A stretch of 64,000 nucleotides of DNA from Gammaproteobacteria bacterium (GCA_963662545.2 CAXXLL010000003.1:320001-384000), one strand, 5' to 3'. Positions 34,883-59,306 are shown, counted from the stretch's first letter. The notes: generated by a model from the sequence alone, not told the origin. Program-made: numbers and translations.

Positions 34883-35027
34883 ATAAGCCGCGTGTAGCAA
34901 AAGTCGCCGCTCGCCAGTGCCGCGTTGCCGAACGCTACTCGACGACCGCTTACGAGCGCATTGCAGACGTAATGCTTAGCGTTGTTGCAGTGCCGCGATT
35001 TGGCCGCTGACGACCCTAAACGGCCAT
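34883..35027 (+). repeat. 145-bp tripartite repeat R1 (subsite A degenerate)
   Basis: B GACCGCttacgagcgcattGCAGAC at 34944; C GGCCGCtgacgaccctaaACGGCC at 35002. Confidence 0.85.
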
Positions 35028-35188
35028 CGGCGAAAATCGAATAACCAATCCTGACGGTTTCAAGTAGGGGAAATTTAACCCCGAGCGTAACGTCGCAATG
35101 CAAGACTTAATCCCATCGTTTAAGTCCTATGGACTGGGGAAAGGGTAGACCGCTGGAAAAGGGTTAAGCCGGTGTTTCAGGGGCCCTT

Positions 35189-35415
35189 TGTCAAGATTTT
35201 TTACACGCCGAGTTTCCCGGCCCGATTGGCGCTAAGCCTTTGTTGTTATTACGGTTCGTACCCAGATTACCCGGAAACCCCGGTGATTTGGCCCCGAAAT
35301 GGGTTGAAAAGTGTCAGTAATTTTTACAAATCCCGGTATTTTTACGGCGTCATGCTAGGGCGTATGGCCTAACCCCTTGAAAGCACTTTAATTATTTTTT
35401 TGGCATGAAACCTGC
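35189..35415 (+). promoter_or_regulatory. Sigma54 promoter with two TGT-N11-ACA enhancer boxes
   Basis: TGTcaagattttttACA 35189-35205; TGTcagtaatttttACA 35312-35328; TGGCATG-N4-CTGC -24/-12 at 35401-35415. Confidence 0.75.
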
Positions 35416-35477
35416 GTCTTAACCAAGCGACGAGAGGCAATTGTTGCCCAATTTAGAAAACGACCGGAGCGTCTGAC

Positions 35478-36257
35478 ATGACCTCGTTCGCGGCCAACCC
35501 CGCGAAACCATTTCCCCCGGCCGCCATTCTGGTGGCGATTCTTCTTATAGGTGCCCCACCGTCCGCTCGAGGCGTGGTGTTGAATTTCGAGGGCTTGATG
35601 CTGCAGTTTCCAACTGGCAACGAAGGGCCGGTTCTAACGCCGTTCCTTACCGGGACGTATGGGTTTCGCTTAACATTGGACGAGCCAGAGCTCTTCCCAC
35701 AAGTCATTAACACGCCTGCTATGCAGGGCATCGTGCACGACATCGAGACCGCTCAGCTCGAAATTTTCCACAACGGCGTGCCCCTCATAATCGGGAGCCA
35801 GGACGTTCACGCCGCAGACGACGGTGTATCGGCCCAGATCTTCTATGACTACAATAATCCCGGAGAAGGCTTCAACGGCCCCCTCGATTTGATCTTAGTG
35901 CAAGGCATCATACCCAGCGGCTCGTTACTGACGGACAATTTATTTGAAGCGGTAACTCTAGAGATTTTCATGACGTTGTTCCCCATGGACGAGTTAGACG
36001 CTTCCGCACGTGAATTGCCTACCCTGATACCGCCATCACAATTCAACGTGGTTACTATGACTATTCACTACCAGATATTATCTGTAAGCCCCCAAGCAGT
36101 GGTGACCCATGAAATTATCCGCGTGGATGGGTTTCAGGGAACCGGTTTCGGCCCGGTGACTAGCCTCACGCTACAAACCATCCCTGAACCCACCGCCCTT
36201 GCCCTTATGGGATTAGCACTCGCAGGATTGGGTTTCCAAAGGCGTAAAGCAGCGTAA
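35478..36257 (+). CDS. PEP-CTERM sorting domain protein
   Basis: Signal peptide; C-terminal IPEPTALALMGLALAGLGFQRRKAA. Confidence 0.9.
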   Translation: MTSFAANPAKPFPPAAILVAILLIGAPPSARGVVLNFEGLMLQFPTGNEGPVLTPFLTGTYGFRLTLDEPELFPQVINTPAMQGIVHDIETAQLEIFHNGVPLIIGSQDVHAADDGVSAQIFYDYNNPGEGFNGPLDLILVQGIIPSGSLLTDNLFEAVTLEIFMTLFPMDELDASARELPTLIPPSQFNVVTMTIHYQILSVSPQAVVTHEIIRVDGFQGTGFGPVTSLTLQTIPEPTALALMGLALAGLGFQRRKAA

Positions 36258-36280
36258 CCGCTCTCAATAATCTAACATCA

Positions 36281-36309
36281 GGAAGCCTGCTTCGGCGGGT
36301 TTCTTTTTT
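36281..36309 (+). terminator. Intrinsic terminator
   Basis: GAAGCCTGC-TTCG-GCGGGTTTC-TTTTTT. Confidence 0.8.
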
Positions 36310-36317
36310 GGCGCGCC

Positions 36318-36462
36318 AGGTCCGCAGTTGGCCGAGACCCGCCCTGCTCAGCTAACGCTCCACTGAAAGCCACTGGATGACCGCTTCCGAGCGCATTGCA
36401 GACGTAACGTTTAATCGTGCTGCACTGCCGCGATAAGGCCGCTGACGACCCACAGCGGACAT
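36318..36462 (+). repeat. 145-bp tripartite repeat R2
   Basis: Subsites start at 36320, 36379 and 36437. Confidence 0.9.
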
Positions 36463-37397
36463 GGCTATCGGAGCGGCAGTGAAGGGAATGCCACTGTCAA
36501 GCGTCCGCCTCCAACGACCCGTTATGCTGCATTATGAATGCACAGTGACCCCATTTCTGTTCAATTATTCTACGATCCTTTTCTATGTTCGGCGGACCTG
36601 GCGGAACTTCATTGTCGAGCGCCGTGAACATTTGAGCAGCTATGCTCCCGGAGCCTGTTATTTCCAGCATTTCGCCGCCATCGCCGTATTTGAACGCATG
36701 TATCGTTCCACCCGGCACAAAAACAAGTGTGCCTGGTGTGCACAGTTCGGTCCTTCCATCACAGGTGATTTCAACGCTTCCTTTAATCACGAAAAATGAT
36801 TCATCCCAGTCGTGGCTATGAGGCGGAGGTCCCATGCCTTTGTCTCCGGACTGATACGTAAATTCCTGTCCCTGTGTTTCTTGTTTTGAAGCGAGCACGG
36901 CTATCGGAGCGGCAGTGAAGGGAATGCCACTGTCAAGCGTCCGCCTCCAACGACCCGTTATGCTGCATTATGAATGCACAGTGCATTACTTCTACGATCT
37001 TTTCTATGTTCGGCGGACCTGGCGGAACTTCATTGTCGAGCGCCGTGAACATTTGAGCAGCTATGCTCCCGGAGCCTGTTATTTCCAGCATTTCGCCGCC
37101 ATCGGGGCCGTATTTGAACGCATGTATCGTTCCACCCGGCACAAAAACAAGTGTGCCTGGTGTGCACAGTTCGGTCCTTCCATCACAGGTGATTTCAACG
37201 CTTCCTTTAATCACGAAAAATGATTCATCCCAGTCGTGGCTATGAGGCGGAGGTCCCATGCCTTTGTCTCCGGACTGATACGTAAATTCCTGTCCCTGTG
37301 TTTCTTGTTTTGAAGCGAGCACGGTTACGTCAGTGCCTACGACGTTCAACGCGGATTTATAAGTCTCCGGTTTGATAATAAGCGGGGCTCTACTCAT
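36463..37397 (-). pseudogene. Cupin domain gene with tandem duplication of its 3' ~430 bp; both copies carry indels
   Basis: PPPHSHDWDESF and VFVPGGTIHAF cupin motifs; 36463-36900 repeated at 36899-37324. Confidence 0.8.
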
Positions 37398-37435
37398 GGG
37401 ATTACTCCTCCGACGGTGTAGATGGGCCGGTTGCG

Positions 37436-37489
37436 GCATAACGCTAGGATAACCTGCTGTAACACGTCAGGATGATCCGTTTGTTAGGT
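37436..37489 (-). other. Integron attC site (54 bp)
   Basis: Minus strand: R'' ACCTAAC, AAACG, L'' GATCATCC ... L' GGTTATC, CTAGC, R' GTTATGC, followed by RBS and cupin ATG. Confidence 0.75.
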
Positions 37490-37491
37490 GG

Positions 37492-38581
37492 CCCGGATTC
37501 ACAATGTAAGTGCAACACAAGAATTTCCCTATATCGCGTTAAACGAAGCGAGCTGGGATACTCGTAAGCACTCTCTTCTTGGCAGAATAGGAAACTTACG
37601 ATGAGTTATCACCAGCTCACCTCTGGAGAGAGGTATATGCTTCACACCTTGAAAATGCAAGGCTGTAAAAACGCAGAGGTCGCTCGAAAACTCGGGCGAC
37701 ATCGGTCTACGATCGGACGCGAACTAAAGCGTAATCGCCGCATCGGTCGGTATCGTCCTGACGAAGCTGAGGAGATGACCCGAGGCAGGCGAACGAAGTC
37801 TCGCCGACGATGGTATTTCACCGACCAACAACTCAGTCTCGCCATTCGCTTGCTGCGCGAGGAATGGAGCCCCCAGCAAGTCTCGGATTGGTTCAAGCGT
37901 CATCGGATATTTTCAATCAGTCACCAGACCCTATACCGGTATATCTGGTACGACCACTTCTTCGGCGGCACCTTATATAAGCATCTGCGACAGGCGGAAA
38001 AACGACGACGGAAACGCTACGGCAGCGGTGATTCTCGCGGTGTTATGCGAGGAAAGCGCCATATCACCGAACGACCACCAGGCGCTGAAAACCGTTCCCG
38101 CATCGGTCATTGGGAAATAGACACCGTCATCGGTAGCCACGACGGTCACTGCATCGTGACCCTCGTTGAACGTAAGACACGATATACCTTAATCGGAAAA
38201 CTTCGGGCTCGCACGACCGCCGAACTCAACCGCAAAGTGATCCAACTTATCAAACGTGAAATGCGCTTGGTGCGAACCGTAACCGCCGATAATGGAACTG
38301 AGTTTCATCAGTTCCAGAAGATAGAAAACGCGACCGACGCTCGCTTCTATTTTTGTACGCCATATCATTCCTGGGAACGCGGTACCAATGAAAATACCAA
38401 CGGCCTTATTCGACAGTACCTGCCCAAAGGGAAAACCATGGCAGACGTTACACAACGTGACTGCGATAAGATAGCGAAGAAACTCAACACACGTCCGCGA
38501 AGGGTTCTCGGCGTCAAAACACCGGAGGAATGTTATGCAGCAGTTTAATCACCCCTGTTGCACTTCACTTGGACATCTGGG
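37492..38581 (+). mobile_element. IS30 family element
   Basis: Imperfect ~26-bp IRs ending AAGTGCAACA; 3-bp TSD TGG. Confidence 0.9.
37601..38548 (+). CDS. IS30 family transposase
   Basis: GRHRSTIGRELKRN, GHWEIDTV, TADNGTEF, WERGTNENTNGLIRQYLPKG. Confidence 0.96.
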   Translation: MSYHQLTSGERYMLHTLKMQGCKNAEVARKLGRHRSTIGRELKRNRRIGRYRPDEAEEMTRGRRTKSRRRWYFTDQQLSLAIRLLREEWSPQQVSDWFKRHRIFSISHQTLYRYIWYDHFFGGTLYKHLRQAEKRRRKRYGSGDSRGVMRGKRHITERPPGAENRSRIGHWEIDTVIGSHDGHCIVTLVERKTRYTLIGKLRARTTAELNRKVIQLIKREMRLVRTVTADNGTEFHQFQKIENATDARFYFCTPYHSWERGTNENTNGLIRQYLPKGKTMADVTQRDCDKIAKKLNTRPRRVLGVKTPEECYAAV

Positions 38582-38606
38582 TGGATGATGCATTTCAAAT
38601 GTGAAC

Positions 38607-39038
38607 TCAGGCCCCTTCGGCTAGCTGCCGCTCGTAACAAGCAGCATCGTAGTAGCCACGAGACTGTGCGATCAGGCCTGATTCGCCCATCTCCCAAACC
38701 TCGACTCCGCTCACGCGAACGGAATTTCCCGTGCCGCCCGGTCCTGTGTTGGTCCCAGTGAGCGTCCATACAAAGAACGCAGCATTACCTGCGACGAGAA
38801 GCTGATCAAGACTGATTTGTAAGTCGGGAAAAGCTTCCATGTAGCTACTTGCTACAGCTGCTAGCGCCGTGCGTCCAATGGCGGGTGGTCCGTCGTTTAT
38901 CGATTGTCGTCCGACTTCCTCGTAGCACGAGGCCATTCCCTCCGGATCGTGCGAAGACCACGCACTCGCACACCGAATCGCGAGATCCCATAGTGCTTGG
39001 GATGGGGCCGTCGAACCTGGCGTCGAGGCTAATTGCAT
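38607..39038 (-). CDS. SnoaL-like ester cyclase
   Basis: AWSSHDP, YMEAFPDL, WTLTGTNTGPGGTG. Confidence 0.85.
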   Translation of the reverse strand: MQLASTPGSTAPSQALWDLAIRCASAWSSHDPEGMASCYEEVGRQSINDGPPAIGRTALAAVASSYMEAFPDLQISLDQLLVAGNAAFFVWTLTGTNTGPGGTGNSVRVSGVEVWEMGESGLIAQSRGYYDAACYERQLAEGA

Positions 39039-39196
39039 TACCGTTTCCTCCGGTTTTTTGCTTTAACGAAAATGTGTCCTTATTTGGGAACTGTATAGAG
39101 GCCTAACATTAAATGGTCGCTACAATGACGCGATTAATCGAATCATTGTGACGCATAATAATCGGTGCAGACATAGCTGTGGTTACGGTAGCCGGG

Positions 39197-39339
39197 GATG
39201 GCTCTTGGCCGACTGCAGCCGTGCTCCCTCCACTCGGTTCTTGAAGCAACTGGACGACCGCTATGAAGGGGAATACAGACGTAATCTAGAGCGGTGTTGC
39301 GATGCGACGATGAGGCCGCTGACGACCCACAGCGGACCT
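39197..39339 (+). repeat. 145-bp tripartite repeat R3
   Basis: tggccgactGCAGCC / GACCGCtatgaaggggaatACAGAC / GGCCGCtgacgacccacaGCGGAC. Confidence 0.88.
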
Positions 39340-39469
39340 CCACAAATCCGGAACCGCTATGCCCGTCCGACGACGAGAACCAAGTTTTCAATCGCTCTTG
39401 TCAGTTGATTATCGATTCCCGGACGGGTTACGGTTCCGTTACCTTAAGAAAATATGGAGAGAGCACTTA

Positions 39470-40414
39470 ATGTCGTTGCCCTCCTTGCCAGAAGTAACTC
39501 GTATTTACCAGAACACGTTCTTCGACAGCACGCGCTGGGACGGTTTCAAACCGCGCGACGGTGACATCATCATCTCGACGTCGTACAAAGGCGGCACGAC
39601 CTGGACACAGGCAATCTGCGGGGCGCTTATTTTTCAATCACCGGACCCTCCTGCACCGCTGGACGAACTCTCACCGTGGATCGACTCAATGTACCATCCC
39701 ATTGAGGACGTCCTCGACCGCGTCGAAACGATGACCTACCGCCGTTACGTCAAGACGCATTTACCGCTCACGGCAGTGCCCTATTACGACAATGTCCATT
39801 ACATCTTCGTCGGTCGTGACGGGCGCGACGTGTGGATGTCGCTGTGGAATCACTTCCGCAACATGAAACCGGAGGTGGTGCAGGCGTTGAACGATAATCC
39901 TCTACGCAAAGGACCCGAGGTGCCGCCGGTTGCCACAGACATTAACGAGGGGTTCGATGAGTGGATGTCGAAATCCCTATACCCCTGGGAACGCGACGGC
40001 TATCCGGCATGGTCACTCCATAATCACGCACAAACGTGGTGGAACTACCGGCACCTCGACAATATCCTGTGTGTTCATTTCGCCGATATGCTCGATGATC
40101 TGAACGGTCAGATGCGCCGCATTGCCGCGTATCTCGACATACCGGTAAACGAGGACGTCTGGCCGGCGCTCGTGCAGTCGGTCACATTCGATGAGATGAA
40201 GCGCAACTTCGCTACGCGCGCACCGGGCAGCAGTAGGGGGGTGTGGAAAGACACTAAGAATTTCTTTCACAAGGGCACCAATCGTCGCTGGGAAGGCGTG
40301 TTGAGCGCTGATCAGATCAGGCGGTATGAATCGCTTATTACAGAGCTGATGGAACCGAATTTGGTGCGCTGGCTTGTGCACGACGACGGGTTCATCGATC
40401 CAAAATCCTTATAG
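39470..40414 (+). CDS. PAPS-dependent sulfotransferase
   Basis: STSYKGGTTW 5'-PSB loop, VKTHLP, RDGRDVWMS, FFHKG. Confidence 0.92.
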   Translation: MSLPSLPEVTRIYQNTFFDSTRWDGFKPRDGDIIISTSYKGGTTWTQAICGALIFQSPDPPAPLDELSPWIDSMYHPIEDVLDRVETMTYRRYVKTHLPLTAVPYYDNVHYIFVGRDGRDVWMSLWNHFRNMKPEVVQALNDNPLRKGPEVPPVATDINEGFDEWMSKSLYPWERDGYPAWSLHNHAQTWWNYRHLDNILCVHFADMLDDLNGQMRRIAAYLDIPVNEDVWPALVQSVTFDEMKRNFATRAPGSSRGVWKDTKNFFHKGTNRRWEGVLSADQIRRYESLITELMEPNLVRWLVHDDGFIDPKSL

Positions 40415-40482
40415 CAGGCGACGGCGTTTGGCGTCGATAACGCCACCACCATCTGTTTCCCGTGAGCAACCATGAGACAACC

Positions 40483-40502
40483 GCTTTTATTCTTCTTATA
40501 CG
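40483..40502 (+). mobile_element. ISCR/IS91 oriIS-like end
   Basis: GCTTTTATTCTTCTTATACG resembles the ISCR oriIS end (TTTATACTTCCTATAC, recalled from memory) and abuts a gene fragment. Confidence 0.45.
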
Positions 40503-40666
40503 TCCGCGATCAGGGCCGCCTGGTCGGAGATTCACCACAAATGCCCTTGTTCTCGAATAAACACCCGCTCATCGGTGCGCTGGGAATGATCGATCCCGAC
40601 TCTCTGACCCCGATCGAAGCGCTCGAAACTCTCTTCCGGTTGCGGTCCTTACTCGACGACGAATGA
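40503..40666 (+). pseudogene. mutS: mutS extreme 3' fragment
   Basis: QMPLF clamp-binding-like motif and IDPDSLTPIEALETLFRLR tail; followed by fdxA as in the usual synteny. Confidence 0.8.
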
Positions 40667-40742
40667 CCATCTTTCTTGTTGGGCTCGGGCGAGGCCGCCG
40701 TTATACTGCACTGCTTTTTCATCAGTCACGAAGTGCTGAGAC

Positions 40743-41066
40743 ATGACATTTGTTGTTGTTGAAAGTTGTATCAAGTGCAAGCTCACGGACTGCGTGGAGG
40801 TATGTCCCGTCGATTGCTTTCACGAAGGTCCGAACATGCTGGTCATCGATCCGGATGAATGTATCGATTGCACCTTGTGCGAACCCGAATGTCCGGTCGA
40901 CGCCATCAAATCCGAGGACGATCTCACCGACGACGAGCAGCACTTCCTGGCCTTGAACACGGAACTTTCCGCCGAGTGGCCCGTGATCAGTGAGATGAAG
41001 GACCCGCCGCCCGATGCGGATGAGTGGAGGGACAAAACCGATAAGCTGCAATACCTCGAACGTTGA
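40743..41066 (+). CDS. fdxA: FdxA-type 7Fe ferredoxin
   Basis: [18 protein letters not shown]...[17 protein letters not shown]. Confidence 0.95.
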
Positions 41067-41159
41067 ACAATGCCCGTCCACAAGCTCGGCTCTGAAGCGG
41101 ACCCATTCCGACTGCACGAGAACCGCCAGCGCTTTTGAACCGGCCATGTAGTGTGCTCG

Positions 41160-41615
41160 TTACAGCCTGTTCCGCACTGGGGCTGAAATGGCGCTCGATA
41201 ATGGGCAGTTGTTTCGGGTGTATGGCGCCTTTGCCGGTCATGCCGAGTTCTGTGCATCGTGCGGCCTCGCGTTCGAGGCCATCCATGTCCTCGAGGTCGA
41301 GCCACGGTACGTCGATGAGATCGACCTGGGCTTCGGCGGTTGCATGGACAAGACGCGAGCGCGCGTACAGCAGGGCATCCCAGGTCGGCGCAACGCGCAA
41401 CTCCGCAGCCATGTCGGTACCGCCGAACAGCAGTGCGTCGACGCGCGCGCTCGCCCTCGCAATCTCGTGGCAGGCTTTGAGCCCCTGATTTGTTTCGACG
41501 ATAAGCTGCAACCGAGTAGCCGCCCCCACACTGGTCAGCAGTTCATCGAGCAGGCGTACTTCATCCGGCGATTTGATCTTGGGTAGCACCAACCCGGGCG
41601 GCGGTGCGTCCGTTC
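41160..41615 (-). pseudogene. Internal fragment of HpcH/CitE-family lyase
   Basis: LVLPKIKS, IVETNQGL, LFGGTDM, GMTGKGAIHPKQ; both ends missing. Confidence 0.8.
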
Positions 41616-41744
41616 GTATAACCTGATATTTAGACGCCCCGCCCAACGCACTCATAAACTTTGAATTCGACGGGAGGACAGCGCCGGGCCATTTTTTGAT
41701 ACGCTGCATTTTCCGAACCGCGTTCGCGCAAGATTGTTCCGACC

Positions 41745-41972
41745 ATGGCTGATCTCCTACTCGATACCAAGGGACTCAACTGCCCCTTACCGATCCTCAA
41801 GACCAAGCGATCGATGAAAGACGTACCCGTCGGAGGGACCATCGAGATCCTCGCCACCGATCCGGCGGCTGACGCGGACTTTCAGGCATTTTGCCGCGCT
41901 ACGGGGCACGAATTGGTCGAGTCTTCGCAGGAGGGCGACGTCTACCGGTTTCTAATCAGACGGGCTAAGTGA
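41745..41972 (+). CDS. tusA: TusA family sulfur carrier
   Basis: LDTKGLNCPLPIL CPxP motif, ATDP. Confidence 0.92.
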   Translation: MADLLLDTKGLNCPLPILKTKRSMKDVPVGGTIEILATDPAADADFQAFCRATGHELVESSQEGDVYRFLIRRAK

Positions 41973-41990
41973 ATGACTGAATTAACCTAG

Positions 41991-42222
41991 CAGGCTGTTG
42001 AAAAAGTCGAACTTTCCCACCGATTGACGATCAGATCGTGTAGGTCAGAGTAACGGGGAGCAACCCGATGCGCGGAGTCGATGATCGTCAAGACAGGATG
42101 TTCAGTTACATCTCGCTGGAGGCGAGAGTGCCGGAAAACCATCCGTTGCGGCCGATCCGCACGATGTTCGATGAGGCGCTAGCGAAGCTGACGGCGAAAT
42201 TTGACACGATGTACGCCGACGG
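41991..42222 (+). mobile_element. IS5 family 5' fragment
   Basis: CTAG|CAGGCTGTTGAAAAA end; MRG.D..Q..MFSYISLEARVPENHPLRPIR. Confidence 0.8.
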
Positions 42223-42297
42223 CGAGCTCGACGTTGTATTGGGCGTCGATCTCGTCCTGGGTCGTGAACCGGCGATAAAGCATCGCGTAAATCAAGA

Positions 42298-42321
42298 GGT
42301 CAGAGTCAATTGACTCTGACC
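42298..42321. repeat. REP-like palindrome
   Basis: GGTCAGAGTCAATTGACTCTGACC perfect 24-bp palindrome. Confidence 0.7.
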
Positions 42322-42346
42322 CCTCGCCGGACAATCTCCCGGCCAA

Positions 42347-43349: not shown

Positions 43350-43368
43350 ACACCCGGAGAAACTTCCC

Positions 43369-51145: not shown

Positions 51146-51149
51146 CAGC

Positions 51150-51198
51150 GATGGCGAAAGGGGGTTGCGGTCAAGTCCGCTCCAACGACTTGTTAGGC
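51150..51198 (-). other. Half attC (R''-L'' only), cut off at repeat R5
   Basis: Minus: GCCTAAC AAGTC GTTGGAGC GGACTTGACCGC; the GFA stop codon lies in R''. Confidence 0.7.
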
Positions 51199-51606
51199 AC
51201 CGGGGAGGTCCTCTGGAGTGAGAGGTGTAATGCTTTCGGAGAAGTGAATCCAGGCGAAGCGATTCTCGTCGTTAGCAGTGCGGGTGGGAAATGGTAGGGG
51301 ATCCTCCGCGAAACACCCACCAGCAACGCCGATCACTCCCTTAAGAGTTTCTGCGTGCCAAAATAATGTTGTCCCGCAGTTACTACAAAAATAGCGCGAT
51401 TGCTTTCCAAACTGGCTATCGAGTTTATAGGCTTTGGTTGAGTCTTTAACCACTCGCACGTTTTCAGTTGGAAAATATGCCGAGTAACCAAAACCACTTC
51501 CCGTTCTCTTTTTACAATTGTTGCAGTGGCATAAAGCATTGAGCGCGGGGTCACCGGAAACCTCGATTACAGTTCCGCCGCAGCAGCATTTTCCTAGGCG
51601 CGTCAT
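51193..51606 (-). CDS. GFA family protein (integron cassette)
   Basis: GKCCCG, CHCNNCKKRTGS, FCSNCGT. Confidence 0.92.
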   Translation of the reverse strand: MTRLGKCCCGGTVIEVSGDPALNALCHCNNCKKRTGSGFGYSAYFPTENVRVVKDSTKAYKLDSQFGKQSRYFCSNCGTTLFWHAETLKGVIGVAGGCFAEDPLPFPTRTANDENRFAWIHFSESITPLTPEDLPGA

Positions 51607-51631: not shown

Positions 51632-51727
51632 GCCTAACGCTGAGTTGAGCGGCACTTGACAGCGACCGACCGAAGCGGAAGCGCAGGGAGGTCGCGGTCA
51701 AGTGTCCGCTCGAACGATTTATAGCAG
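51632..51727 (-). other. Integron attC site, R'' damaged
   Basis: Minus: CTGCTAT AAATC GTTCGAGC GGACACTTGACC...GTCAAGTGCCGCTCAAC TCAGC GTTAGGC; long imperfect hairpin. Confidence 0.8.
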
Positions 51728-51741
51728 GCACCGCGTACTCC

Positions 51742-52272
51742 CTATTCAACATTTTCTCTGGCGGTATTTGGCTTGATCGCTAAGCCGCGAACCGGATTAA
51801 GCAATAGGTATTCTTGCAAAGTGGTGTGCACAGCCTCAATCGTTTTCTCGGCGTTTTCAAACGCATTTGAAAGTATCTGGATTTTTTCTATGGGATATAG
51901 AACATCGAATAGTTTGTCGATATTTTCGTGCAACGGATCACGGCTCACGATATCCTGGACCAGAAGCTCTAAAACTTTCAGCGCAGCCGCTTCGATCGTG
52001 TCACGTTCGGTCTCAATTACTGAGTCAGACCTATACACTGATTTAAGCCATTCGTGTAGCGACTCTAGCTCGCGAACCGAACCACTCTTTGATTTCGATA
52101 CAAGAGTCCCTGGGCCTTCGGGGCAGAACTTTTCGTTTCCCTGGTACATGGCGATCGCGAATAACGCTAAATCAACACGATCGTTCTTGGAGTAGATGTA
52201 GTGTCCGCGGGCTAGATTGCGGCGTTCAGATTTCGCGCTGCCGCCAAAGAACTTTGATATAACTTGTCGCAT
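51742..52272 (-). CDS. Hypothetical protein (integron cassette)
   Basis: AT-richer 176-aa ORF between GTTAGCAG and attC. Confidence 0.65.
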   Translation of the reverse strand: MRQVISKFFGGSAKSERRNLARGHYIYSKNDRVDLALFAIAMYQGNEKFCPEGPGTLVSKSKSGSVRELESLHEWLKSVYRSDSVIETERDTIEAAALKVLELLVQDIVSRDPLHENIDKLFDVLYPIEKIQILSNAFENAEKTIEAVHTTLQEYLLLNPVRGLAIKPNTARENVE

Positions 52273-52289
52273 GCCGAGACTTTAGGTGA

Positions 52290-52330
52290 CTGCTAACAGG
52301 TAATAAACGGGCAAAAGTGCCCTGTTATGC
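52290..52330 (-). other. attI-like site heading the two-cassette remnant
   Basis: Minus: GCATAACAGGGCACTTTTGCCCGTTTATTACCT-GTTAGCAG; core complements the CTGCTA of the downstream R''; no attC-type hairpin. Confidence 0.5.
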
Positions 52331-52478
52331 ATAAAACATAGTGCATCATATTTTGGGGTCTTTCTGTTTGATCTGACGGCATATTCTCATTCAAATCGCA
52401 GCGACAGGATATTAATAATAGGGGCACATCCCATCGGGCGCGAATCTCATGTGTGCGGCTCCGAAATTCGGGTGGGCG

Positions 52479-52623
52479 ATGGCTGCTTTTGGCCGACTGC
52501 CGTCGTCATCCGTTAACACGTCAATGAACGCTACTCGACGACCGCTTACGAGCGCATTGCAGACACAAGGTAGAGCGGTGCTGCACTGCCGCGATTTGGC
52601 TGTTGACGACCCATAGCGGACTT
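52479..52623 (+). repeat. 145-bp tripartite repeat R6
   Basis: Subsites at 52481, 52540 and 52598. Confidence 0.9.
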
Positions 52624-52634
52624 GTTGCGCCGCA

Positions 52635-53132
52635 TTATCGTGTGCTGGATTGTGTAGACCGAAGCGGCTCAGCTTGGGCGATGATATCGTCTACTACTGC
52701 TCGAATATTTGGAGTATATAGCTCGCGCAACCCAGCCCACTCCTTGCGAACGCCAGGGCTCGTAACTAGTACCGAGGCGTAGCCTCTCACCCATGCTTTC
52801 CAGATCTCTTCATTTAGAAGCCCAGCTTCATAATTAAATCGTGCGCTTTGAAACACGTTGAACATGGAAAGACAGTAGAACGAGTACTGCTTTCGTTCAG
52901 CCGCCGTCATTTCATCGTACGCCTCATCAGCCCGGACCAATAATTCGGCGACTTGCGGATTACCGCCGACCAAATCCATTGCGGCGATTTGATTCGACAC
53001 CAGGTCTTGATGAGTCGAAACCTTGAGCGCAGAGGTATTCTGACGAACTTGAAATGCCAGATATATGAGAGTGATTATTACTCCTGACGCGGCCACTACT
53101 TCTGCTATCACACCTATGGCGGCCCAGTTCAT
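52635..53132 (-). CDS. Uncharacterised membrane-anchored protein, family member 1
   Basis: MNWAAIGVIAEVVAASGVIITLIYLAFQVRQNT...SPGVRKEW. Confidence 0.8.
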   Translation of the reverse strand: MNWAAIGVIAEVVAASGVIITLIYLAFQVRQNTSALKVSTHQDLVSNQIAAMDLVGGNPQVAELLVRADEAYDEMTAAERKQYSFYCLSMFNVFQSARFNYEAGLLNEEIWKAWVRGYASVLVTSPGVRKEWAGLRELYTPNIRAVVDDIIAQAEPLRSTQSSTR

Positions 53133-53191
53133 GCGTTCTGCCTCGACATCCGATCGAACGCGCAGCATACCTGTGTGAACTAGGGCGGGGA

Positions 53192-53467
53192 ATGCCCGCA
53201 CCTAGCCGTGAGCCGAAATCACCCGCAGTTGCACTTTCAAAGCGACCGGGATGGCCGCTTACGAGCGCATTGCAGACGTAACAACGCCACGTCGATCACT
53301 CCTTTATCTCCTGCCCGATCATCGAGCAGGTCAGTGTCTAGGCGTGGGTCATTTTTCGGTGCAAATATCCCCTTCAGGTGGGTCAGTTTTCAGTGCAAAT
53401 CAACAGACGTAACTATTACCAGTGCTGCACCGCCGCGATTGGGCGGCTGACGATGCTAAAGAGTCAA
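53192..53467 (+). repeat. Tripartite repeat R7 with IS21-end remnant after subsite B
   Basis: GGCCGCttacgagcgcattGCAGAC; C degenerate. Confidence 0.8.
53283..53405. mobile_element. IS21-family terminal remnant
   Basis: Two GTGGGTCA.TTTTC.GTGCAAAT repeats ending CAACA; flanked by GACGTAAC direct repeats. Confidence 0.7.
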
Positions 53468-53682
53468 GTGTCGTCGATCCGGAAAAGCACAAGGATTACT
53501 TTTCACGGTCGGGGCGGAAAACCTGAATACGAGAAATCGCGATTGTTGAGGGCCGTTTGACAGACAGCCTTACTCGTTGTTACTTGCGAATGATGCGGGC
53601 GCTCGACTAAGCTATCTAACGGATGATCATTGAAAAAACATCCGAATAACCAAAAATTACTTTATCAAGGGAGATAATTACC

Positions 53683-55611
53683 ATGCCCACACCGAATCTG
53701 CCAGTATGAACAGGACACTTTCTAGAAATAGTTTATTGTAGAAAGTGAGTCCATCAAATGTTACAGAACAATCATTCAATGATCGAAGAGAAACCGGGGT
53801 CAAGCGACGAAACGCCTGATCCACAGGTCAAATCGAAGACGATTCGACGCGCCTTTACGACCGCCTACAAGCTGTCGATCCTAGAGCAGGCCGATCAGTG
53901 CCAGGGGCATGGTGAGGTCGGTGCGCTACTGCGCCGAGAAGGACTATATTCGTCCCACTTGAGCACCTGGCGTCGGTTACGGCGTGAGGGAACGCTGCAG
54001 GCGCTCAAGAACAACAAGCGCGGGCCCAGACCAACGCTGGACCCGGTAGATCGGCGCGTGCTCGAGCAGCTGCGTCGTCGTAATGCGAAGTTGGAGCACG
54101 AACTTGAGAAGGCCCGCACTATCATTGATGTTCAAAAAAAACTCTCGTCCATCCTGGCGGCGATGCCCGACGACAAGGAGTCGTCATGAACGCGGTCACA
54201 GCGCTGGGTGGATCCGTGGGCACACGAGGCGCCTGCGCGGCACTCAATGTGCATCGGTCACGGTACTACCGTTTTCGACGTCCCAAGCTTGCCACGCGGC
54301 GAGCGCCACCGCCATTGAAACTCAGTGAGGGCGAACGCCAGCACATCCATGAGGTTTTGGTCTCGCCAGCATTCGTCGATCAAACACCGGCCACCGTGGT
54401 GGCTAATCTACTCGATGACGGCACCTATCTGTGCTCAGCGCGAACGATGTATCGGATCTTGCATGAGCATCAGCAGGTGCGAGAGCGGCGTCGTGGACAC
54501 CGCCGGGTGCACTACGCGAAGCCGGAGTTGGTCGCCAGGGTACCGAACCAATGCTGGTCGTGGGACATCACCAAACTCAAGGGGCCGGTTACGTGGCAGT
54601 ATTTCTACCTATACGTCATCCTGGACCTGTACAGCCGCTACGTGGTGGGCTGGATGGTGGCTGAACGTGAAGCGGCGGTGCTGGCCAAACGGCTGATCAC
54701 TGAGATCTGCGCGAAACAGGACATCGTCGAAGGCCAGTTGACGTTGCACGCCGACCGCGGCTCATCTATGAAGTCGAAGTTGGTCGCTCAACTGCTGGTG
54801 GATCTCGGCGTGATCAAGTCTCACTCGCGGCCGCATACCAGTGATGATAATCCGTTCTCCTAGGCGCAATTCAAAACGCTCAAATATCGACCGGGGTTCC
54901 CAGGACGGTTCCCCCACATCGGTGCTGCCGCAAGACACAGTCAGTCCTTCTTCAATTGGTACAACCTCGAGCACAAGCACTCCGGTATCACGATGTTGAC
55001 GCCGCACGCCGTTCATTACGGTCTTGCCGACGGCATACTGGCAGGGCGCCAGCAGGCCCTAAACCAAGCGTTCGCGGCCCATCCCGAGCGCTTCAAATAT
55101 GCCGCACCCACGGTCACGCCGCTGCCGACGGCCGTATGGATCAATCCGCCAGTTCAAACCAAAAAGGAGAGCCGCTGCCAATCAGAATAGACATTGAACT
55201 TCGAAACCATGTGTCCTATTTTCATTGACAGGTTCCGCAGGAAAAGAAGTCGGAGCGTTCACGACCACGTCTACATCGATTACCAAAGGCGTCGACGCGG
55301 CGGGAAATCACACGTTCGTATTGAATGTAGAGGGCTCTGTGACAGGGGGATGGTCCGGCACCGTACTCGGTACGCTGATTGCCACGACCGCTGACTTTCA
55401 GACTGGCAGCTATACCGCAGATTTTGCGGCGTACCTGGAAGACGGCAGTGTGGTGACGGGAAGCGGCGGCGGGACATTTGGCTCAACAGGCGGGCACCAG
55501 TGGCAGCTGAATGGAACGGCACTGCTCTCCGATGGATCGCGGGTGGCCACTGAGGGCATCCTAGAACTCGCAAACCGCACCTACAATGGGAAGATGTTTA
55601 AAATTAGCTAA
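53683..55611 (+). pseudogene. Hypothetical beta-rich protein interrupted after codon 3 by IS3
   Basis: RBS GGGAG, ATGCCCACA|IS|CAGGAAAAGAA restores MPTGKEVGAF... Confidence 0.75.
53692..55237 (+). mobile_element. IS3 family element (orfA 53758-54189; orfB 54186-55190 with internal TAG)
   Basis: IRs CCGAATCTGCCAGTATGAACAGGACAC / CGGAACCTGTCAATGAAAATAGGACAC; WSWDITKL, HADRGSSM, DNPFS*AQFKTLKY. Confidence 0.9.
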
Positions 55612-55661: not shown

Positions 55662-55672
55662 GAGTGCTCACC

Positions 55673-55981
55673 ATGGCCGCTCATGGCCGACTGCAGCCGT
55701 GCCCTCTCGACTCGATGCTTGAAGCTACTCGACGACCGCTATGGAGGGGATTGCAGACGTAATCTTTAGCGGTGCTGCACTGCGGCGAGGGGGCCGCTCA
55801 CGACCCAGACTGTGTGAAAACTATTTTCATTTTTCAAAAGTGGGGGAACTACCCTCGAAATTGGATCTAATTGAAATGCCGATCCCTATTCGAGGGGCAT
55901 AACAACTATGCTGGTGGGGAATATTTTTATTTCGTCGTCGTATTTTTGAGTTTTCACACAGTCTGGACCCGAAGCGGACAT
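55673..55981 (+). repeat. Tripartite repeat R8 with MITE in subsite C
   Basis: Subsites at 55675, 55734 and 55792; 309 bp = 145 + 160 + 4. Confidence 0.9.
55806..55965. mobile_element. 160-bp MITE copy 2
   Basis: Same sequence, 17-bp TIR, TSD GACC. Confidence 0.9.
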
Positions 55982-56045
55982 CAGAGGTAGCAAGGTGAGG
56001 GCGCGGTCAAGTGCCTAAATTGACGCTTTGTAGACTCATTTTCCG

Positions 56046-56537
56046 TTACGAATTTCCTGAACTCCCCAACCACGGATAGTTTGAATCGACGTTTCTATAT
56101 TCTTCAAGTTCAGAAAGAATTGCCGGCGTCGTTGTAACGGTGTCCCATAGCCATCTTCCGCCAGGTGAGTTCAACATGGCCGCCATGGGTTTTGTATACA
56201 TTAACCATTCGTCATCCGACAGGACACCTGCGCTGTGATACTTCTTGAGAGCCGTGTATTGGTTTAGATATGACTGCACTAGCATTGAGATTTGTACGCG
56301 GCCAATCTCATCCAATTTTTCAGGCTCAGCCATGCCTGACACCCATAGTTTCGTGACCGCCGGGTCGTCGATGATGTGAGTGTTAATTGCGTTAAAACCC
56401 GTCGCCAACGCATCCAGGGACGAAGACTCTGTTGCACGTCGGTTATTTCGGACCTCAATTGCCAAAAATATCAACGTAACTACGATGGCAAGTGCGCCTA
56501 TAACTTCAGAGATTCCGATAATTAACTGCCAGTTCAC
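56046..56537 (-). CDS. Uncharacterised membrane-anchored protein, family member 2
   Basis: MNWQLIIGISEVIGALAIVVTLIFLAIEVRNN...SPGGRWLW; RBS GGAGG. Confidence 0.8.
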   Translation of the reverse strand: MNWQLIIGISEVIGALAIVVTLIFLAIEVRNNRRATESSSLDALATGFNAINTHIIDDPAVTKLWVSGMAEPEKLDEIGRVQISMLVQSYLNQYTALKKYHSAGVLSDDEWLMYTKPMAAMLNSPGGRWLWDTVTTTPAILSELEEYRNVDSNYPWLGSSGNS

Positions 56538-56598
56538 TTTTTACCTCCCCCTATCTATGCCGCGAATCGATAGCATATTCTGAAGGCTTAAAAGAGGC

Positions 56599-56906
56599 AT
56601 GTCCGCGCGTAGCTGAGGCCGAAGTCACCTGCAGTGATGCTCTCTATAAGAAGGACGCGACCGCTTACGAGCGCATTACAGACGTAACGTATAGCAGTGC
56701 TGCACTGCCGCGATATGGCGGCTGACGACCCAGACTGTGTGAAAACTATTTTCATTTTTCAAAAGTGGGGGAACTACCCTCGAAATTGGATCTAATTGAA
56801 ATGCCGATCCCTATTCGAGGGGCATAACAACTATGCTGGTGGGGAATATTTTTATTTCGTCGTCGTATTTTTGAGTTTTCACACAGTCTGGACCCATTGC
56901 AGCCAT
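56599..56906 (+). repeat. Tripartite repeat R9 with MITE in subsite C
   Basis: GACCGCttacgagcgcattACAGAC; C GGCGGCtgacgacc[MITE]gacccattGCAGCC. Confidence 0.9.
56731..56890. mobile_element. 160-bp MITE copy 3
   Basis: Matches copy 2, TSD GACC. Confidence 0.9.
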
Positions 56907-57264
56907 TATCGTAGTCACCAGACTGCGCTCTTTGTACGGTCACCCTACGCGTCGATATGCTATCCCAAGCAACTCATCAAGAAGGGGGACATCATGGAAT
57001 CAATAAATTGGGATGCCGTTTCAGCGTCTGCGGAAGTAATCGGAGTTGTCGCAGTGCTTGCTTCGATACTCTATCTAGCGCGTCAGGTCACACAAGGAAA
57101 CAAGCTTAACCAAGCGGATTCCGTTCGAGCATTTCTCGGCCAGTACAACGCATTTTTATATGAAGTAAAAGCGCCCGGAATGACTGAGATTTGGCGGCGC
57201 GGCTTAGCTGATTTTCAATCGCTTTCTGCCGATGAAAAATCAAGATTACATCTCGTTTTGCTAG

Positions 57265-58870
57265 CCTGCAAATTGCACCAATAGAAACGGCGGTCCTGTA
57301 GTTTCCTATATAATTCAAAGTGCTAACAACGAATAAAGGAAGGGACCGCCGTGACGAAATGTTACCAGAGATCGTTCGAATTTCCACGTGTTAATCGCCG
57401 CATTGTCGAAGCCAGATTCGACGGTGGCGACATCACTTCCGATGGTGGCGTGTTGCTATTGCGGCAGGCAGATCGGTTAACGGGTTTGAGTGATTCGATT
57501 GCGCGGGCGCTGTCGGATCCCCGCCGTCAGGCGAGTTGCGATCATGATGTGCCGGGTCTGGTTCGGCAACGCCTGTATGCGATTGCGCTGGGCTATGAAG
57601 ACCTGAACGACCATGACGGATTGCGTCAAGACGTGGCACTGCAGACAGCAGTGGAACGTGATCAATGGTTGGCCAGTGCATCGACCTTATGCCGTTTTGA
57701 GAACCGGGCTGATCGGGAGACTGCCTGGCGGTTGCACGAAGTGCTGCTCGATCAGTTCATCGCCTCGTTCAAGCGTGCACCGAAAAAGTTGATACTGGAC
57801 TTCGATGCGACCGATGACCCGGTACACGGTGAACAGGACGGTCGCTTCTTTCACGGCTATTACCGGCACTACTGTTTTCTGCCACTGTATGTATTCTGCG
57901 GTCATCAGTTGCTGGTGAGCTATCTTCGTCCGAGCAACATCGATGGTGCCAAACACAGCTGGGCGATTTTGTCGTTGTTGGTCAAAAGACTGCGGCAAGT
58001 GTGGCCAAAGGTGCGGATCATCTTCCGCGGTGACGGTGGCTTTTGCCGCTGGAAGATGCTGCGCTGGTGTGATCATCACGAGGTCGGCTACATCATCGGA
58101 CTGGCTAAGAATAAGTGCTTGAACCGGCTCACGGCATCCTTGCAGGATGAGGCCGCGGCGTGCTTTGCCGCCACCGGACATAAAGTGCGCTGGTTCACCG
58201 ATTTCCAATACGCTGCCCGCAGCTGGGATGGTGCGCGTCGCGTGATCGCCAAGATCGAGCACTCGCAGCACGGTGTCAATCCGCGTTATGTGGTGACCAA
58301 CCTTGAAGGCGATGCCAAGCAGCTGTACGACAAGCTTTACTGTGCCCGCGGTGACATGGAAAACCGCATCAAGGAAAACCAACTGGATATGTTCGGCGAT
58401 CGCACCTCCTGTCAACACTGGTGGCCGAATCAGTTCCGATTGTTACTCGCCTCGCTGGCCTACACCCTGATCGAGGCGATCCGGCGGATCGCATTGAAAG
58501 GTACCGAGCTGGCCAACGCTTATGTCGGTACCATCCGTTTAAAGCTGTTCAAGATCGGTGCCGTGATCCTGAAAAATACGCGCCGTATCCGTTTCCTTTT
58601 GGCCAGCGGTTGTCCTTACAAGGAACTCTACTTCCTGGCCGCGAATCGACTCGCACCCGGATAAACCCGAAACGATTAAAGCATTCGCGTGTTGAAAACA
58701 CGCATGGATACCTTTGCCTGAAAAACGACTTCTCAGCAAAAATTACTGCGGTAACGTCCTTGCCACTCGGGAATGAGTAGACCAGCCCCTGCAATCGCCG
58801 ATGACAATCGATTGAACGGCCAACTTGCCAACAAAACCGCCTAAATTTATTCACTCATGCAATATGCAGG
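57265..58870 (+). mobile_element. IS1380 family element
   Basis: IRs CCTGCAAATTGCA / TGCAATATGCAGG; TSD CTAG. Confidence 0.93.
57351..58664 (+). CDS. IS1380 family transposase
   Basis: FDGGDITSDGG, GYEDLNDH, LDFDATDDPVHGEQ, RGDGGF, YCARGDMENRIKE. Confidence 0.95.
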   Translation: MTKCYQRSFEFPRVNRRIVEARFDGGDITSDGGVLLLRQADRLTGLSDSIARALSDPRRQASCDHDVPGLVRQRLYAIALGYEDLNDHDGLRQDVALQTAVERDQWLASASTLCRFENRADRETAWRLHEVLLDQFIASFKRAPKKLILDFDATDDPVHGEQDGRFFHGYYRHYCFLPLYVFCGHQLLVSYLRPSNIDGAKHSWAILSLLVKRLRQVWPKVRIIFRGDGGFCRWKMLRWCDHHEVGYIIGLAKNKCLNRLTASLQDEAAACFAATGHKVRWFTDFQYAARSWDGARRVIAKIEHSQHGVNPRYVVTNLEGDAKQLYDKLYCARGDMENRIKENQLDMFGDRTSCQHWWPNQFRLLLASLAYTLIEAIRRIALKGTELANAYVGTIRLKLFKIGAVILKNTRRIRFLLASGCPYKELYFLAANRLAPG

Positions 58871-59161
58871 CTAGGTCACTTCATGTTGGGTCAGGCGCAA
58901 AGAATGGTCGATCCAGAAGGGGCAGAGGAGATTTCCAAAACCATCGATTATTTCATCGCGGTTACGGTGAAGCAGGGCGGCTTTCAGCAATGGTGGGATA
59001 CTTTCAAGAAAATCTTGCCCGATGAAGAGTACGTTAAACGGATAGATGACTTGCCTGCGGCTCAGGGAGTAATTTGGGCGGAAGCTATGCCATGGTTCTC
59101 ACAGGACAGCACGTAAGCGGATGAAGATTTCGCCAAATACTCCAGCCTGCTGAGAATCCGG

Positions 59162-59306
59162 ACGACCGCTCATGGCCACGAGCCCAAGTCAGGCTTCCAC
59201 GTAGCGCGTTAAGCAGTTTGACGACCGCTTCCGGGGGTATTGCAGACGAACTCCTTAGTAGTGCTGCGCTACCGCGATCAGGCCGTTAACGACCCACAGC
59301 GGACGT
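59162..59306 (+). repeat. 145-bp tripartite repeat R10
   Basis: Subsites at 59164, 59223 and 59281. Confidence 0.9.

Follow-up and report, generated by a model that had tools for sequence, protein, structure and literature searches.

A three-part 145-bp repeat bounding accessory genes in a gammaproteobacterial genome: possible resolvase-like sites expanded into cassette arrays

Which system, if any, lines up accessory genes one after another when the repeats that separate them are not integron attC sites? This question is raised by a 64,000-nucleotide stretch of a gammaproteobacterial genome (C3:320001-384000 of G000, 5.58 Mb in 3 contigs), referred to here as the window. Between 34.9 and 59.3 kb, repeat search and alignment recover ten copies of a repeat of about 145-150 bp, all on the + strand, as the initial annotation had described them. 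The answer proposed here is that these repeats may be res-like sites of a small FimB/E-like tyrosine recombinase, expanded into arrays of gene cassettes, a reading drawn from sequence comparisons that seems to us evenly balanced between right and wrong. The repeat has a constant, multipartite anatomy, its copies cluster, the cassettes that it bounds are reused in other arrays, and recombinase genes adjoin its dyads (pairs of inverted half-sites). Unprefixed positions refer to the window and those prefixed by C2 or C3 to contigs of G000.

The window copies, R1 to R10, were delimited by nhmmer with a profile built from themselves and share about 65-85% identity over 145 bp. Their half-sites, A, B and C, are phased. 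The initial annotation, whose repeat starts lie 2 nt ahead of the first half-site, attributed exact spacings of 59 and 58 bp to R2, R6, R8 and R10, and this is confirmed by the half-site starts (36320/36379/36437 in R2, 52481/52540 with the C dyad at 52598 in R6, 55675/55734/55792 in R8 and 59164/59223/59281 in R10). The 58-bp B-to-C spacing is found in 9 of the 10 copies, the exception being the truncated R4; the A-to-B spacing is 58 bp in R9 and 50 bp in R5, because the A part of the latter has a 9-nt gap. R7 carries, by reading of the sequence, an insertion of about 118 bp after GCAGACGTAAC. Genes ending 10-20 bp from a repeat, another feature previously noted, are real at 52635 and 59324, and the G+C content is about 50-55% between the repeats versus about 58-63% over the initial third of the window.

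The consensus and the structure tests were derived from 80 non-identical full-length copies. The conserved blocks are, in order, GtccGctctTGGCCGagaGCCG (A), GACGACCGCTTacGAGcGcATTGCAGACGTAA (B), GTGCTGCACTGCCGCGA and GGCcGCTgACGACCCanaGCGGAC (C), the half-site G-CCGCT being present three times in direct order, and a fourth conserved inverted pair, TTGCAGAC / GTGCTGCA, is located between B and C. The three dyads originally reported hold as three phased half-sites, but C is the sole good palindrome, the right arms of A and B being weak. No conserved RNA-type structure was detected on either strand of the 80 copies (RNAalifold, 0.0 kcal/mol), no Watson-Crick covariation appears among their top mutual-information pairs, and DNA folding of three copies on both strands revealed no stable hairpin (z of -0.45, -2.64, +0.09, -0.48, -0.91 and -0.77). 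Blocks conserved without covariation or stable folding fit protein binding on duplex DNA. A local stem, GCATTGCAGAC/GTGCTGCACTGC, was considered and discarded, its sequence being kept with no compensatory change and its pairing being broken in R3. An Rfam gathering search of the whole window gave no match, and the repeat is not a CRISPR, as previously stated. Furthermore, neither terminal inverted repeats proper to the 145-bp unit nor a target duplication around its ends can be seen in the alignment and consensus.

In the whole genome, 119 nhmmer matches were obtained at E <= 1e-3, well beyond chance expectation, a total that includes a few duplicates, some of the copies from the end of contig C2 being repeated on C3. 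The expected grouping in islands is clear: 112 of the 119 matches belong to 12 clusters (three or more copies) of 3 to 33 copies, mostly spaced by 0.7-5 kb, and seven are single. Ten of these clusters are uniform in orientation and two are mixed. Two of the seven solo copies (C3:1258230 and C3:2751969) were compared with the two other species of the genus, G001 and G002; synteny stops near both, so that no clean empty site is available. The plain alternative raised initially, a miniature inverted-repeat transposable element (MITE) or repetitive extragenic palindromic (REP) sequence, is not borne out, as no copy was seen singly between conserved core genes and the two solo copies examined lie at ends of synteny.

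The repeat appears to be restricted to one genus. Using the sequence-only model, 4 of the 61 genomes searched, G000 included, have a match, and both other species of the genus carry it (25 matches in G001 and 7 in G002, which are 89% and 95% complete, respectively). It was not found by this model in 34 other genomes of the same family, and three weak matches occur in one genome from another family. An exact-pattern scan of 185,579 species genomes returned 11 stretches, six of which were scored by the model together with a further locus (L014). Two short contigs from Chloroflexota and Poribacteria metagenome-assembled genome bins (L042 and L046) bear true copies at 95-108 bits, probably as misbinned DNA from the gammaproteobacterial genus itself. 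The plasmid collection contained no DNA match to R2.

A second type of repeat, about 170 bp long (GTCCGCTATACCGCCGTAAGCAGCC ... GTCCGGAGTCGACCC), has a related dyad and a C-like end and is present in six copies, four of them preceding, at a distance of 0.7-3.6 kb, an array (three cases) or a solo repeat (one case). Four copies, which overlap only in part with those preceding arrays, display a MITE-like end right after GACCC (GTGTGAAAAC, or GTCCGAAAAC in one).

The segments between repeats behave as units. The segment C2:442780-445136 is 95% identical to C2:682783-685151 from the interior of one repeat to the interior of the next and is embedded in unrelated DNA, and the R2-R3 cassette is found again, without its insertion sequence (IS), an IS30-like element, at C3:906035-909235. 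Likewise, segments ordered X-repeat-Y in G000 are ordered Y-repeat-X-repeat in its sister G002. The 632-aa gene of the cassette C2:682783-685151 has a 97%-identical counterpart among three tandem chromosomal paralogues (C3:2732105-2734146) located far from any repeat; the homology extends from 6 nt ahead of the ATG to about 110 nt past the stop, which looks like a snapshot of cassette formation.

The junctions of such units were surveyed by comparing 99 near-full copies with one another, pair by pair. Only the upstream flank is shared in fifteen pairs, seven of them owing to a MITE end in the A centre; the others correspond to six independent cases where homology is lost inside the repeat, two of them in A (columns 45-46 and 49-51), two to the right of B (columns 105-115 and 108-131) and two at columns 128-145, to the left of the C centre by 10 bp or more. 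Conversely, 96 pairs share their downstream flank only, 92 of which are explained by an IS or MITE in the C centre; among the other four, three share an inserted element after ...GCTnnCG and one is weakly alike. Gene-content differences therefore do break inside the repeats, between arrays and between sister species, as had been anticipated. The single fixed breakpoint also anticipated, at the GACCC or TGGCC centre, gives way to breakpoints in three zones, a pattern that homologous recombination or gene conversion among repeats would produce as well. Four of 24 sequencing runs (X19, X23, X24 and X1) were considered, as Logan contigs that end at repeats; no excised circle was seen among these contigs, the repeat-to-repeat joints that they show are most likely cross-matches of other copies, and most of what X1 covers is IS elements and portions of 40-47 kb.

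The sites are also targets of insertion elements. A 1687-bp IS with CAGAGTGTGTGAAAAC ends and a 487-aa open frame (478-aa transposase open reading frame, ORF), which appears by reading to be IS5/IS1182-like, has 14 full copies in G000. Thirteen of them occupy a single position within the C centre, inserted either way round and with duplication of GACC, and the fourteenth lies inside a solitary C-like dyad (example copy, C2:1622616-1624302). A MITE of about 180 bp with the ends of this IS is found in C and A centres; the initial annotation had correctly placed one in R8, but R5 and R9 also carry one, all three in C with GACC duplicated. A third element is inserted after ...GCTnnCG in three repeat copies. 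By analogy, this pattern of IS and MITE insertion is that of site-specific "hunters" such as those known for res and attC. Finally, six IS91-family elements (Y2_Tnp and Zn_Tnp_IS91) are confined to arrays, where each of them runs antiparallel to the repeats. On the left these elements follow the GGCCA(A/G)... of an inverted A dyad, on the right they abut an AGCGGAC-like sequence, and their first ORF is a XerC-like integrase of 293-319 aa. These XerC-like recombinases were considered as the array integrase and set aside as the first ORF of IS91-family elements; they are taken up again among the rival explanations.

Recombinase genes and nearby dyads

The array of the window is headed by a gene for a small tyrosine recombinase, which is oriented like R1, ends about 270 bp ahead of it and is interrupted by an IS5-like element with three further copies in or near other arrays. 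The ORF 32282-32860 holds a Phage_integrase domain cut at profile position 140, the remainder of which is found at 34486-34581. The N-terminal part is 97% identical to an intact paralogue, C2:486757-487380, and the C-terminal part 89% identical to residues 162-207 of the latter (tblastn). Another intact paralogue, C3:1447215-1447751, precedes, in the same orientation and by 2.2 kb, an array starting at C3:1449924. By eye, the motifs expected of a tyrosine recombinase (Arg, His-x-x-Arg, His and Tyr) are kept in the intact copies. The C2 paralogue is far from any array and is followed by a B-like dyad, GTCTGCTTTTACCAGTAGCGGAC (486638), and, 67 bp further, by a C-type one in the array orientation, GGCCGTTACCAACCCATGCGGCC (486571), i.e. 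about 95 and 165 bp after its stop codon. Since 23 loose C-type matches exist outside repeats in G000, the chance of finding one on the right strand within 300 bp downstream of one of the three genes is about 0.002 by our own arithmetic. The co-occurring recombinase envisaged initially thus has a candidate, which heads the window array and a second one and has a third paralogue with dyads.

The best NCBIfam models for this protein are "tyrosine-type DNA invertases" (NF007370, 157.8 bits for a cut-off of 221, and NF007371, 155.9 for 222), the integron-integrase model gives 51.7 bits for a cut-off of 265, and the nearest solved structures are of the XerC/XerD/XerA type. No serine recombinase was found in G001 or G002, and G000 has one broken PF00239 match. 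A distinct gene, 24971-25552 (+), located 7 kb upstream of the array, encodes another tyrosine recombinase of 193 aa that belongs to a different family (PF00589, 70 bits).

Relatives of the recombinase are numerous in metagenomes, from which the best 80 of 401 (drawn from 600 candidate stretches; 62-82% identity) were examined for the pattern G-C(C/T)G(C/T)T-N7-13-(A/G)GC(G/A)G-C. Within 150 bp downstream of the gene, 11 dyads were counted in 11,238 bases, at 9 of the 69 loci with enough flank, versus 4 in 45,299 bases at 150-1000 bp downstream, 7 in 56,950 bases at 0-1000 bp upstream and 15 in 243,913 bases more than 1 kb away. The density is thus 0.98 per kb close to the gene versus 0.06 per kb beyond 1 kb, a 16-fold enrichment, and in five loci the dyad begins 5-6 bp past the end of the match. 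Locus L082 displays three consecutive dyads, B-like, inverted A-like and C-type (GGCCGCTAACGACCC), and L063 a MITE with the same GTGTGAAAAC end inside a dyad. Locus L102 carries five related repeats 0.6-10 kb downstream of the gene, with small genes between them, and none in the 10 kb upstream. Two of these intervening genes belong to a small membrane-protein family that is common in the arrays of G000 and is also encountered in L068 and L094 (4 ORFs in 3 of the 80 loci).

At E <= 1e-50, the gene is present in 9 of the 400 genomes searched, G000 included. Homologues are also found in 73 plasmid records, and in 2 of the 5 plasmid regions opened they lie beside a Tn3-family transposase. In Skermanella, where three identical copies reside on three replicons, the homologue (64% identical) and the transposase are encoded divergently; the 166-bp gap that separates them (L155, Skermanella sp. 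TT6 plasmid pTT6-5, 3840-4007) contains repeated TTTCGGGAAAGT motifs, which are probably the own res site of that clade; the gap between divergent resolvase and transposase genes is the classical position of res. In a Cyanobacterium plasmid, the two genes are convergent, and in the remaining three regions the homologue lies in plasmid-maintenance or accessory DNA. Such contexts are the setting of a cointegrate or multimer resolvase, which agrees with the likeness to res sites pointed out initially.

Proposed mechanism and rival explanations

In the mechanism that we favour, the 145-bp repeat would be a composite double-stranded site made of dyads A, B and C, all built on the half-site G-CCGCT / AGCGG-C. 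A resolvase-type tyrosine recombinase of about 200 aa, encoded at the array head, would bind these dyads and exchange strands. The site would combine a core with accessory recombinase-binding sites, C being the main crossover site and A and B the accessory ones; C is preferred as the exchange site because it is the best palindrome, is kept beside the solitary paralogue and is where the IS mainly inserts. Within the genus, the site would have spread together with accessory genes into arrays of direct copies. Two such copies, by recombining, would release the intervening genes as a circle, whose insertion at another copy would shuffle genes within and between arrays. As the recombinase gene of the window is broken by an IS, any present activity would be provided in trans by the two intact paralogues.

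A broader claim can be made only tentatively, doubt slightly outweighing belief: that of an integron-independent platform in which a recombinase and a three-dyad duplex site would allow cassettes of one gene each to be excised, captured and reordered in arrays of up to about 40 sites on the chromosome. The recombinase-dyad module would be widespread in environmental bacteria, with its own site-hunting IS and a recurrent membrane-protein cargo, and a resolution system of transposons or plasmids would have been turned into a gene stockpile.

Several results weigh against this mechanism. The recombinase gene adjoins only 2 of the 12 clusters of G000, two others being headed by a P4-type integrase gene. 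It was not found at E <= 1e-20 in G001 or G002, both of which carry repeats, and G002 has only two PF00589 matches, XerC/XerD-like by length and score. The breakpoints are spread over three zones of the repeat, with no single position, and do not confirm C as the exchange site; they may result from exchange at several dyads, from later gene conversion or from plain homologous recombination. Between same-orientation repeats, 91 ORFs are co-oriented and 98 anti-oriented (crude ORFs), and this lack of bias gives no sign of a common promoter. Outside G000, no dyad was found near the gene at the 9 loci of 8 other species genomes of the class (one, L148, from an unpublished genome, G075) or in the 5 plasmid regions opened, and the repeats of L102 are oriented oppositely to the gene when compared with G000. 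In a quick tree, the 9 dyad-bearing rows are scattered and require 7 changes, a value also reached in 19 of 500 shuffles.

Part of these results is just what is expected if no dedicated recombinase exists, the repeat being merely dispersed, the arrays being reshuffled by homologous recombination or gene conversion and the recombinase genes being passengers. This explanation, the likeliest of the rivals, is unlikely in our view. Each of the three breakpoint zones lies beside a long conserved block, the recombinase is missing from the searches of G001 and G002 and from the vicinity of most clusters, and the two mixed-orientation clusters are such as inversions between copies would give. However, homologous recombination leaves unexplained why each gene has its own copy of the repeat, packed within 6-30 bp, as well as the dyads that follow the gene in 9 of 69 unrelated loci and the array of L102. 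Moreover, copies about 65-85% identical over 145 bp make a poor RecA substrate.

It is improbable that another recombinase of the genome uses the sites, be it the IS91-associated XerC-like integrase, the second IntI or the host XerC/XerD. In favour of such a reading are the confinement of all six IS91-family elements to arrays, their antiparallel orientation and their ends abutting the A dyad or an AGCGGAC-like sequence, the lack of a repeat array beside IntI C3:1527239, and the presence of only two tyrosine recombinases in G002. However, IS91 targets tetranucleotides, and the left junctions of these elements follow CAAG, CAAC, AGAG or AGGG in the A dyad, which fits this target habit better than a role as array recombinase; in addition, neither of the two PF00589 matches of G002 can be an IS91-type integrase. 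As for IntI, it needs a folded single-stranded attC with AAC/GTT boxes, which are absent from the repeats, and the dyads do not seem to resemble the dif consensus.

Still less probable is a non-autonomous MITE- or REP-like element that inserts beside or into its own earlier copies, the arrays growing by transposition and the genes being bystanders. The high copy number, genus restriction and uniform size of the repeat would suit such an element, as would the precise insertion of IS and MITE families into it, but the unit is devoid of terminal inverted repeats of its own and of any visible target duplication, 112 of the 119 copies are clustered with uniform orientation, gene-plus-repeat units recur with different neighbours, and the two solo copies examined are at synteny breaks.

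Lastly, the array layout, the tight packing of 0.7-3 kb cassettes, the two intI genes of the genome and the roughly inverted A and C at the two ends of the site might evoke unusual attC sites, in clusters of attC sites lacking integron-integrases (CALINs) left by a fragmented sedentary integron, but this is very improbable indeed, since the repeats have no AAC/GTT boxes, fold no better than shuffles and show no covariation, their genes are not co-oriented, no IntI lies within 50 kb of a cluster, and the true integron of the genome has 122-bp attC sites of quite different sequence. Neither the RYYYAAC nor the GTTRRRY box is found in the consensus of the 80 copies, so the initial statement that the repeats are not attC is upheld by comparison with the attC sites that the genome does possess at another locus. 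Only two genes of the genome, C2:996723 and C3:1527239, score above the TIGR02249 cut-off, and no repeat cluster comes closer than 50 kb to either. The first, intI C2:996723-997664 (462.5 bits), is accompanied upstream by at least 11 attC sites of about 122 bp (CCTAAC...GTTAGG). These are located at 4349-17557 of L006 (C2:978000-997999) and bound cassettes of 0.4-2.7 kb in a classical, sedentary integron. The second, intI C3:1527239-1528180 (461.1 bits; L002 and L007), is not preceded by any repeat array over 18.7 kb.

Cargo and other features of the window

The features of the array are collected in Table 1. Its commonest cargo, in G000 as a whole, is the small membrane-protein family represented three times in the window, with 21 members, an N-terminal membrane helix and a weak match to DUF6082 (E 6.6e-4). 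A protein-cluster search returned unnamed clusters only, one of them with DUF6082 on 32% of its members, and a literature search on DUF6082 turned up no paper. Luciferase-like monooxygenases (13 members) and short-chain-dehydrogenase-like proteins (8, by reading) come next, along with many transposases.

In the R3-R4 interval, the sulfotransferase is identified by Pfam, the other products (glutaredoxin/rhodanese-like, IscA-like and radical-SAM-like proteins, a luciferase-like monooxygenase fragment and a major facilitator superfamily transporter) by reading of ORF translations. Two 41-nt palindromic copies (GGTCAGAGTCAATTGACTCTGACC), 42288-42328 and 43314-43354, flank the glutaredoxin/rhodanese-like gene of this interval. 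In R2-R3, a tandem duplication of about 424-436 bp at 36454-37327 has given two cupin ORFs, 36497-36898 and 36933-37439.

Table 1. Array-associated features of the window and of related loci in G000
Feature	Position	Strand	Description and basis
Recombinase, N-terminal part	32282-32788	+	residues 1-169 of 207 aa, FimB/FimE-like; PF00589 1.2e-28, positions 2-140
IS5-like element	32787-34489 (approximate ends)	+	448-aa transposase 32927-34273; DDE_Tnp_1, DUF772
Recombinase, C-terminal part	34468-34608	+	residues ~162-207, LGH and RY motifs; PF00589 positions 140-171
R1	34875-35034	+	degenerate A part; B and C intact; nhmmer, alignment
PEP-CTERM protein gene	35478-36257	+	R1-R2 cassette; Pfam
R2	36310-36469	+	complete three-part copy, 59/58 phasing; nhmmer, alignment
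R2-R3 interval	36497-39038	-	two cupin copies, IS30-like element, SnoaL-like gene; repeats, Pfam
IS30-like element	37601-38548	+	R2-R3
SnoaL-like gene	38607-39038	-	R2-R3
R3	39187-39346	+	degenerate A part; variant B centre; nhmmer, alignment
R3-R4 interval	39359-49115		~10 kb, higher G+C; mixed genes (see text)
R4	49432-49562	+	without A part, degenerate C part; model positions 49-150; nhmmer
Luciferase-like monooxygenase	49625-50740	+	R4-R5 cassette
R5	50838-50988	+	~180-bp MITE at ~50970-51150 within C centre; nhmmer, sequence
GFA-family protein	51193-51606	-	R5-R6
Solitary dyad GTCCGCT...AGCAGGC	51704-51729	+	between the two R5-R6 genes; regex scan
Unknown 176-aa protein	51742-52272	-	R5-R6
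Second solitary, weak dyad	52288-52312	-	R5-R6 interval; regex scan
R6	52471-52630	+	full copy; nhmmer, half-site scan
Small membrane protein	52635-53201	-	weakly DUF6082-like; paralogues 56046-56537 (-) and 56796-57284 (+)
R7	53184-53286 plus 53320-53474 (53184-53474 overall)	+	two nhmmer matches, single interrupted copy
IS3-like element	53758-55228	+	R7-R8; ORF-translation reading; very high read depth in runs examined
R8	55665-55824	+	MITE ~55806-55986 within C centre, GACC duplicated; nhmmer, sequence
R9	56591-56749	+	MITE ~56731-56911 within C centre; nhmmer, sequence
IS4-like transposase (DDE_Tnp_1_4)	57351-58664	+	R9-R10
R10	59154-59313	+	last copy; stop of TPR/AAA regulator 11 bp further; nhmmer, sequence
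IS91-family elements	C2:613433, 623594, 627660, 1616923; C3:6876, 922389		in arrays
Second repeat type	C2:1108823, 1217023, 251465, 1642196; C3:1277739, 2542151		~170 bp, six copies

At its far end, the array abuts a gene for an AAA_16/TPR regulator, 59324-59872 and 61975-63999 (-), split by an IS66-family element whose genes cover 59718-61978 (527-aa transposase by Pfam; tnpA- and tnpB-like ORFs upstream, from the ORF list). Outside the array, identical 300-nt direct repeats, 21311-21610 and 28882-29181, are separated by 7.6 kb; as the second overlaps an IS-like ORF (28922-29653), they are probably two IS copies bracketing the segment. Two copies of a GTAGGAGCCCG...CGGGCGAAT element, 11498-11563 and 12245-12310, are presumably REP-like, in the manner of pseudomonad REP sequences.

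Comparison with known site-specific systems

Integrons are the textbook route by which bacteria stockpile and reshuffle genes, and the plasmid-bound pdif modules are a second one. If the proposed mechanism is true, the arrays described here would be a third route, based on a resolvase-type recombinase and a duplex multi-dyad site, in the chromosomes of uncultured marine, sponge- and sediment-associated Gammaproteobacteria, with related modules in many metagenomes. It would reveal a new family of compact recombinase/site pairs and imply that annotation tools relying on attC only overlook entire classes of such arrays. It would also open the origin of cassette systems to tests, as a case in which a resolution site was recruited for gene capture, and the 97%-identical cassette trimmed 6 nt before its start codon bears on the old question of how cassettes are made. 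In the portions of the literature covered by our search, no published description of the 145-bp repeat or of the array system turned up.

Like integrons, the arrays consist of same-orientation repeats of about 60-150 bp that separate individual, tightly packed accessory genes (tens of bases from the repeat at most), have a tyrosine recombinase gene at one end, reuse cassettes in other arrays and orders, and host site-specialised IS. Unlike integrons, they rely on a 145-bp site with three phased dyads and no boxes, hairpin or covariation, their genes point both ways, and the recombinase present is a 207-aa protein limited to its catalytic domain.

Resolution sites are attractive for mobile elements, res being the target of "res-hunter" transposons, and the 145-bp sites likewise have hunting elements, here an IS. 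The sequence layout of the repeat, with half-sites at 59/58 bp and C as the best palindrome, would fit the res type, the breakpoints of shared cassettes lying away from the C centre. The internal recombination site (IRS) of Tn4430 combines a palindromic core, IR1-IR2, with accessory TnpI-binding repeats, DR1 and DR2, which limit the TnpI reaction to deletion between direct repeats (PMC2847244). The three-dyad layout fits a site of the TnpI-IRS kind. The res and IRS sites of the Tn3 family, such as that of Tn4430, lie beside the recombinase gene, contain several motifs at fixed spacing over about 120-150 bp, with a palindromic core and accessory motifs, and act between direct repeats (PMC2847244, PMC7157771), the repeats of the window being likewise direct. 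The difference is that there is one such site per transposon or plasmid, whereas G000 has 119 matches in cargo-bounding chromosomal arrays, and that the dyad sequence is unlike that around the plasmid homologues. No Tn3-family transposase was found among the window ORFs scanned with Pfam, no genome-wide search having been made.

The pdif sites, recombined by the host XerC/XerD, are dif-like, single, only 28 bp long and alternating in orientation. According to reports on Acinetobacter plasmids, these double-stranded tyrosine-recombinase sites bound accessory modules that are shuffled among replicons, and the recombinase need not adjoin every array (PMC6449649, PMC13141974, PMC12907356), three features that the proposed mechanism would share. 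In contrast, the sites of G000 have 145 bp and three dyads, are uniform in orientation in 10 of 12 clusters and have a dedicated small candidate recombinase.

The FimB/FimE invertases are the nearest NCBIfam family of this candidate and resemble it in their size of about 200 aa, in having no separate N-terminal core-binding domain and in the location of the site beside the gene. They differ from it in that the candidate scores below their cut-offs and in that its putative sites are direct repeats bounding many genes instead of an inverted pair around a promoter.

In rAID-1 of Bacteroidales, a non-IntI tyrosine recombinase gene is followed by small genes separated by conserved intergenic repeats. 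The rAID-1 arrays differ from the present ones in phylum, recombinase family, repeat and cargo. Tyrosine-recombinase sites that bound mobile gene modules are already known, from integrons and pdif; the new part would be the recombinase family, the composite duplex site and its deployment in chromosomal arrays.

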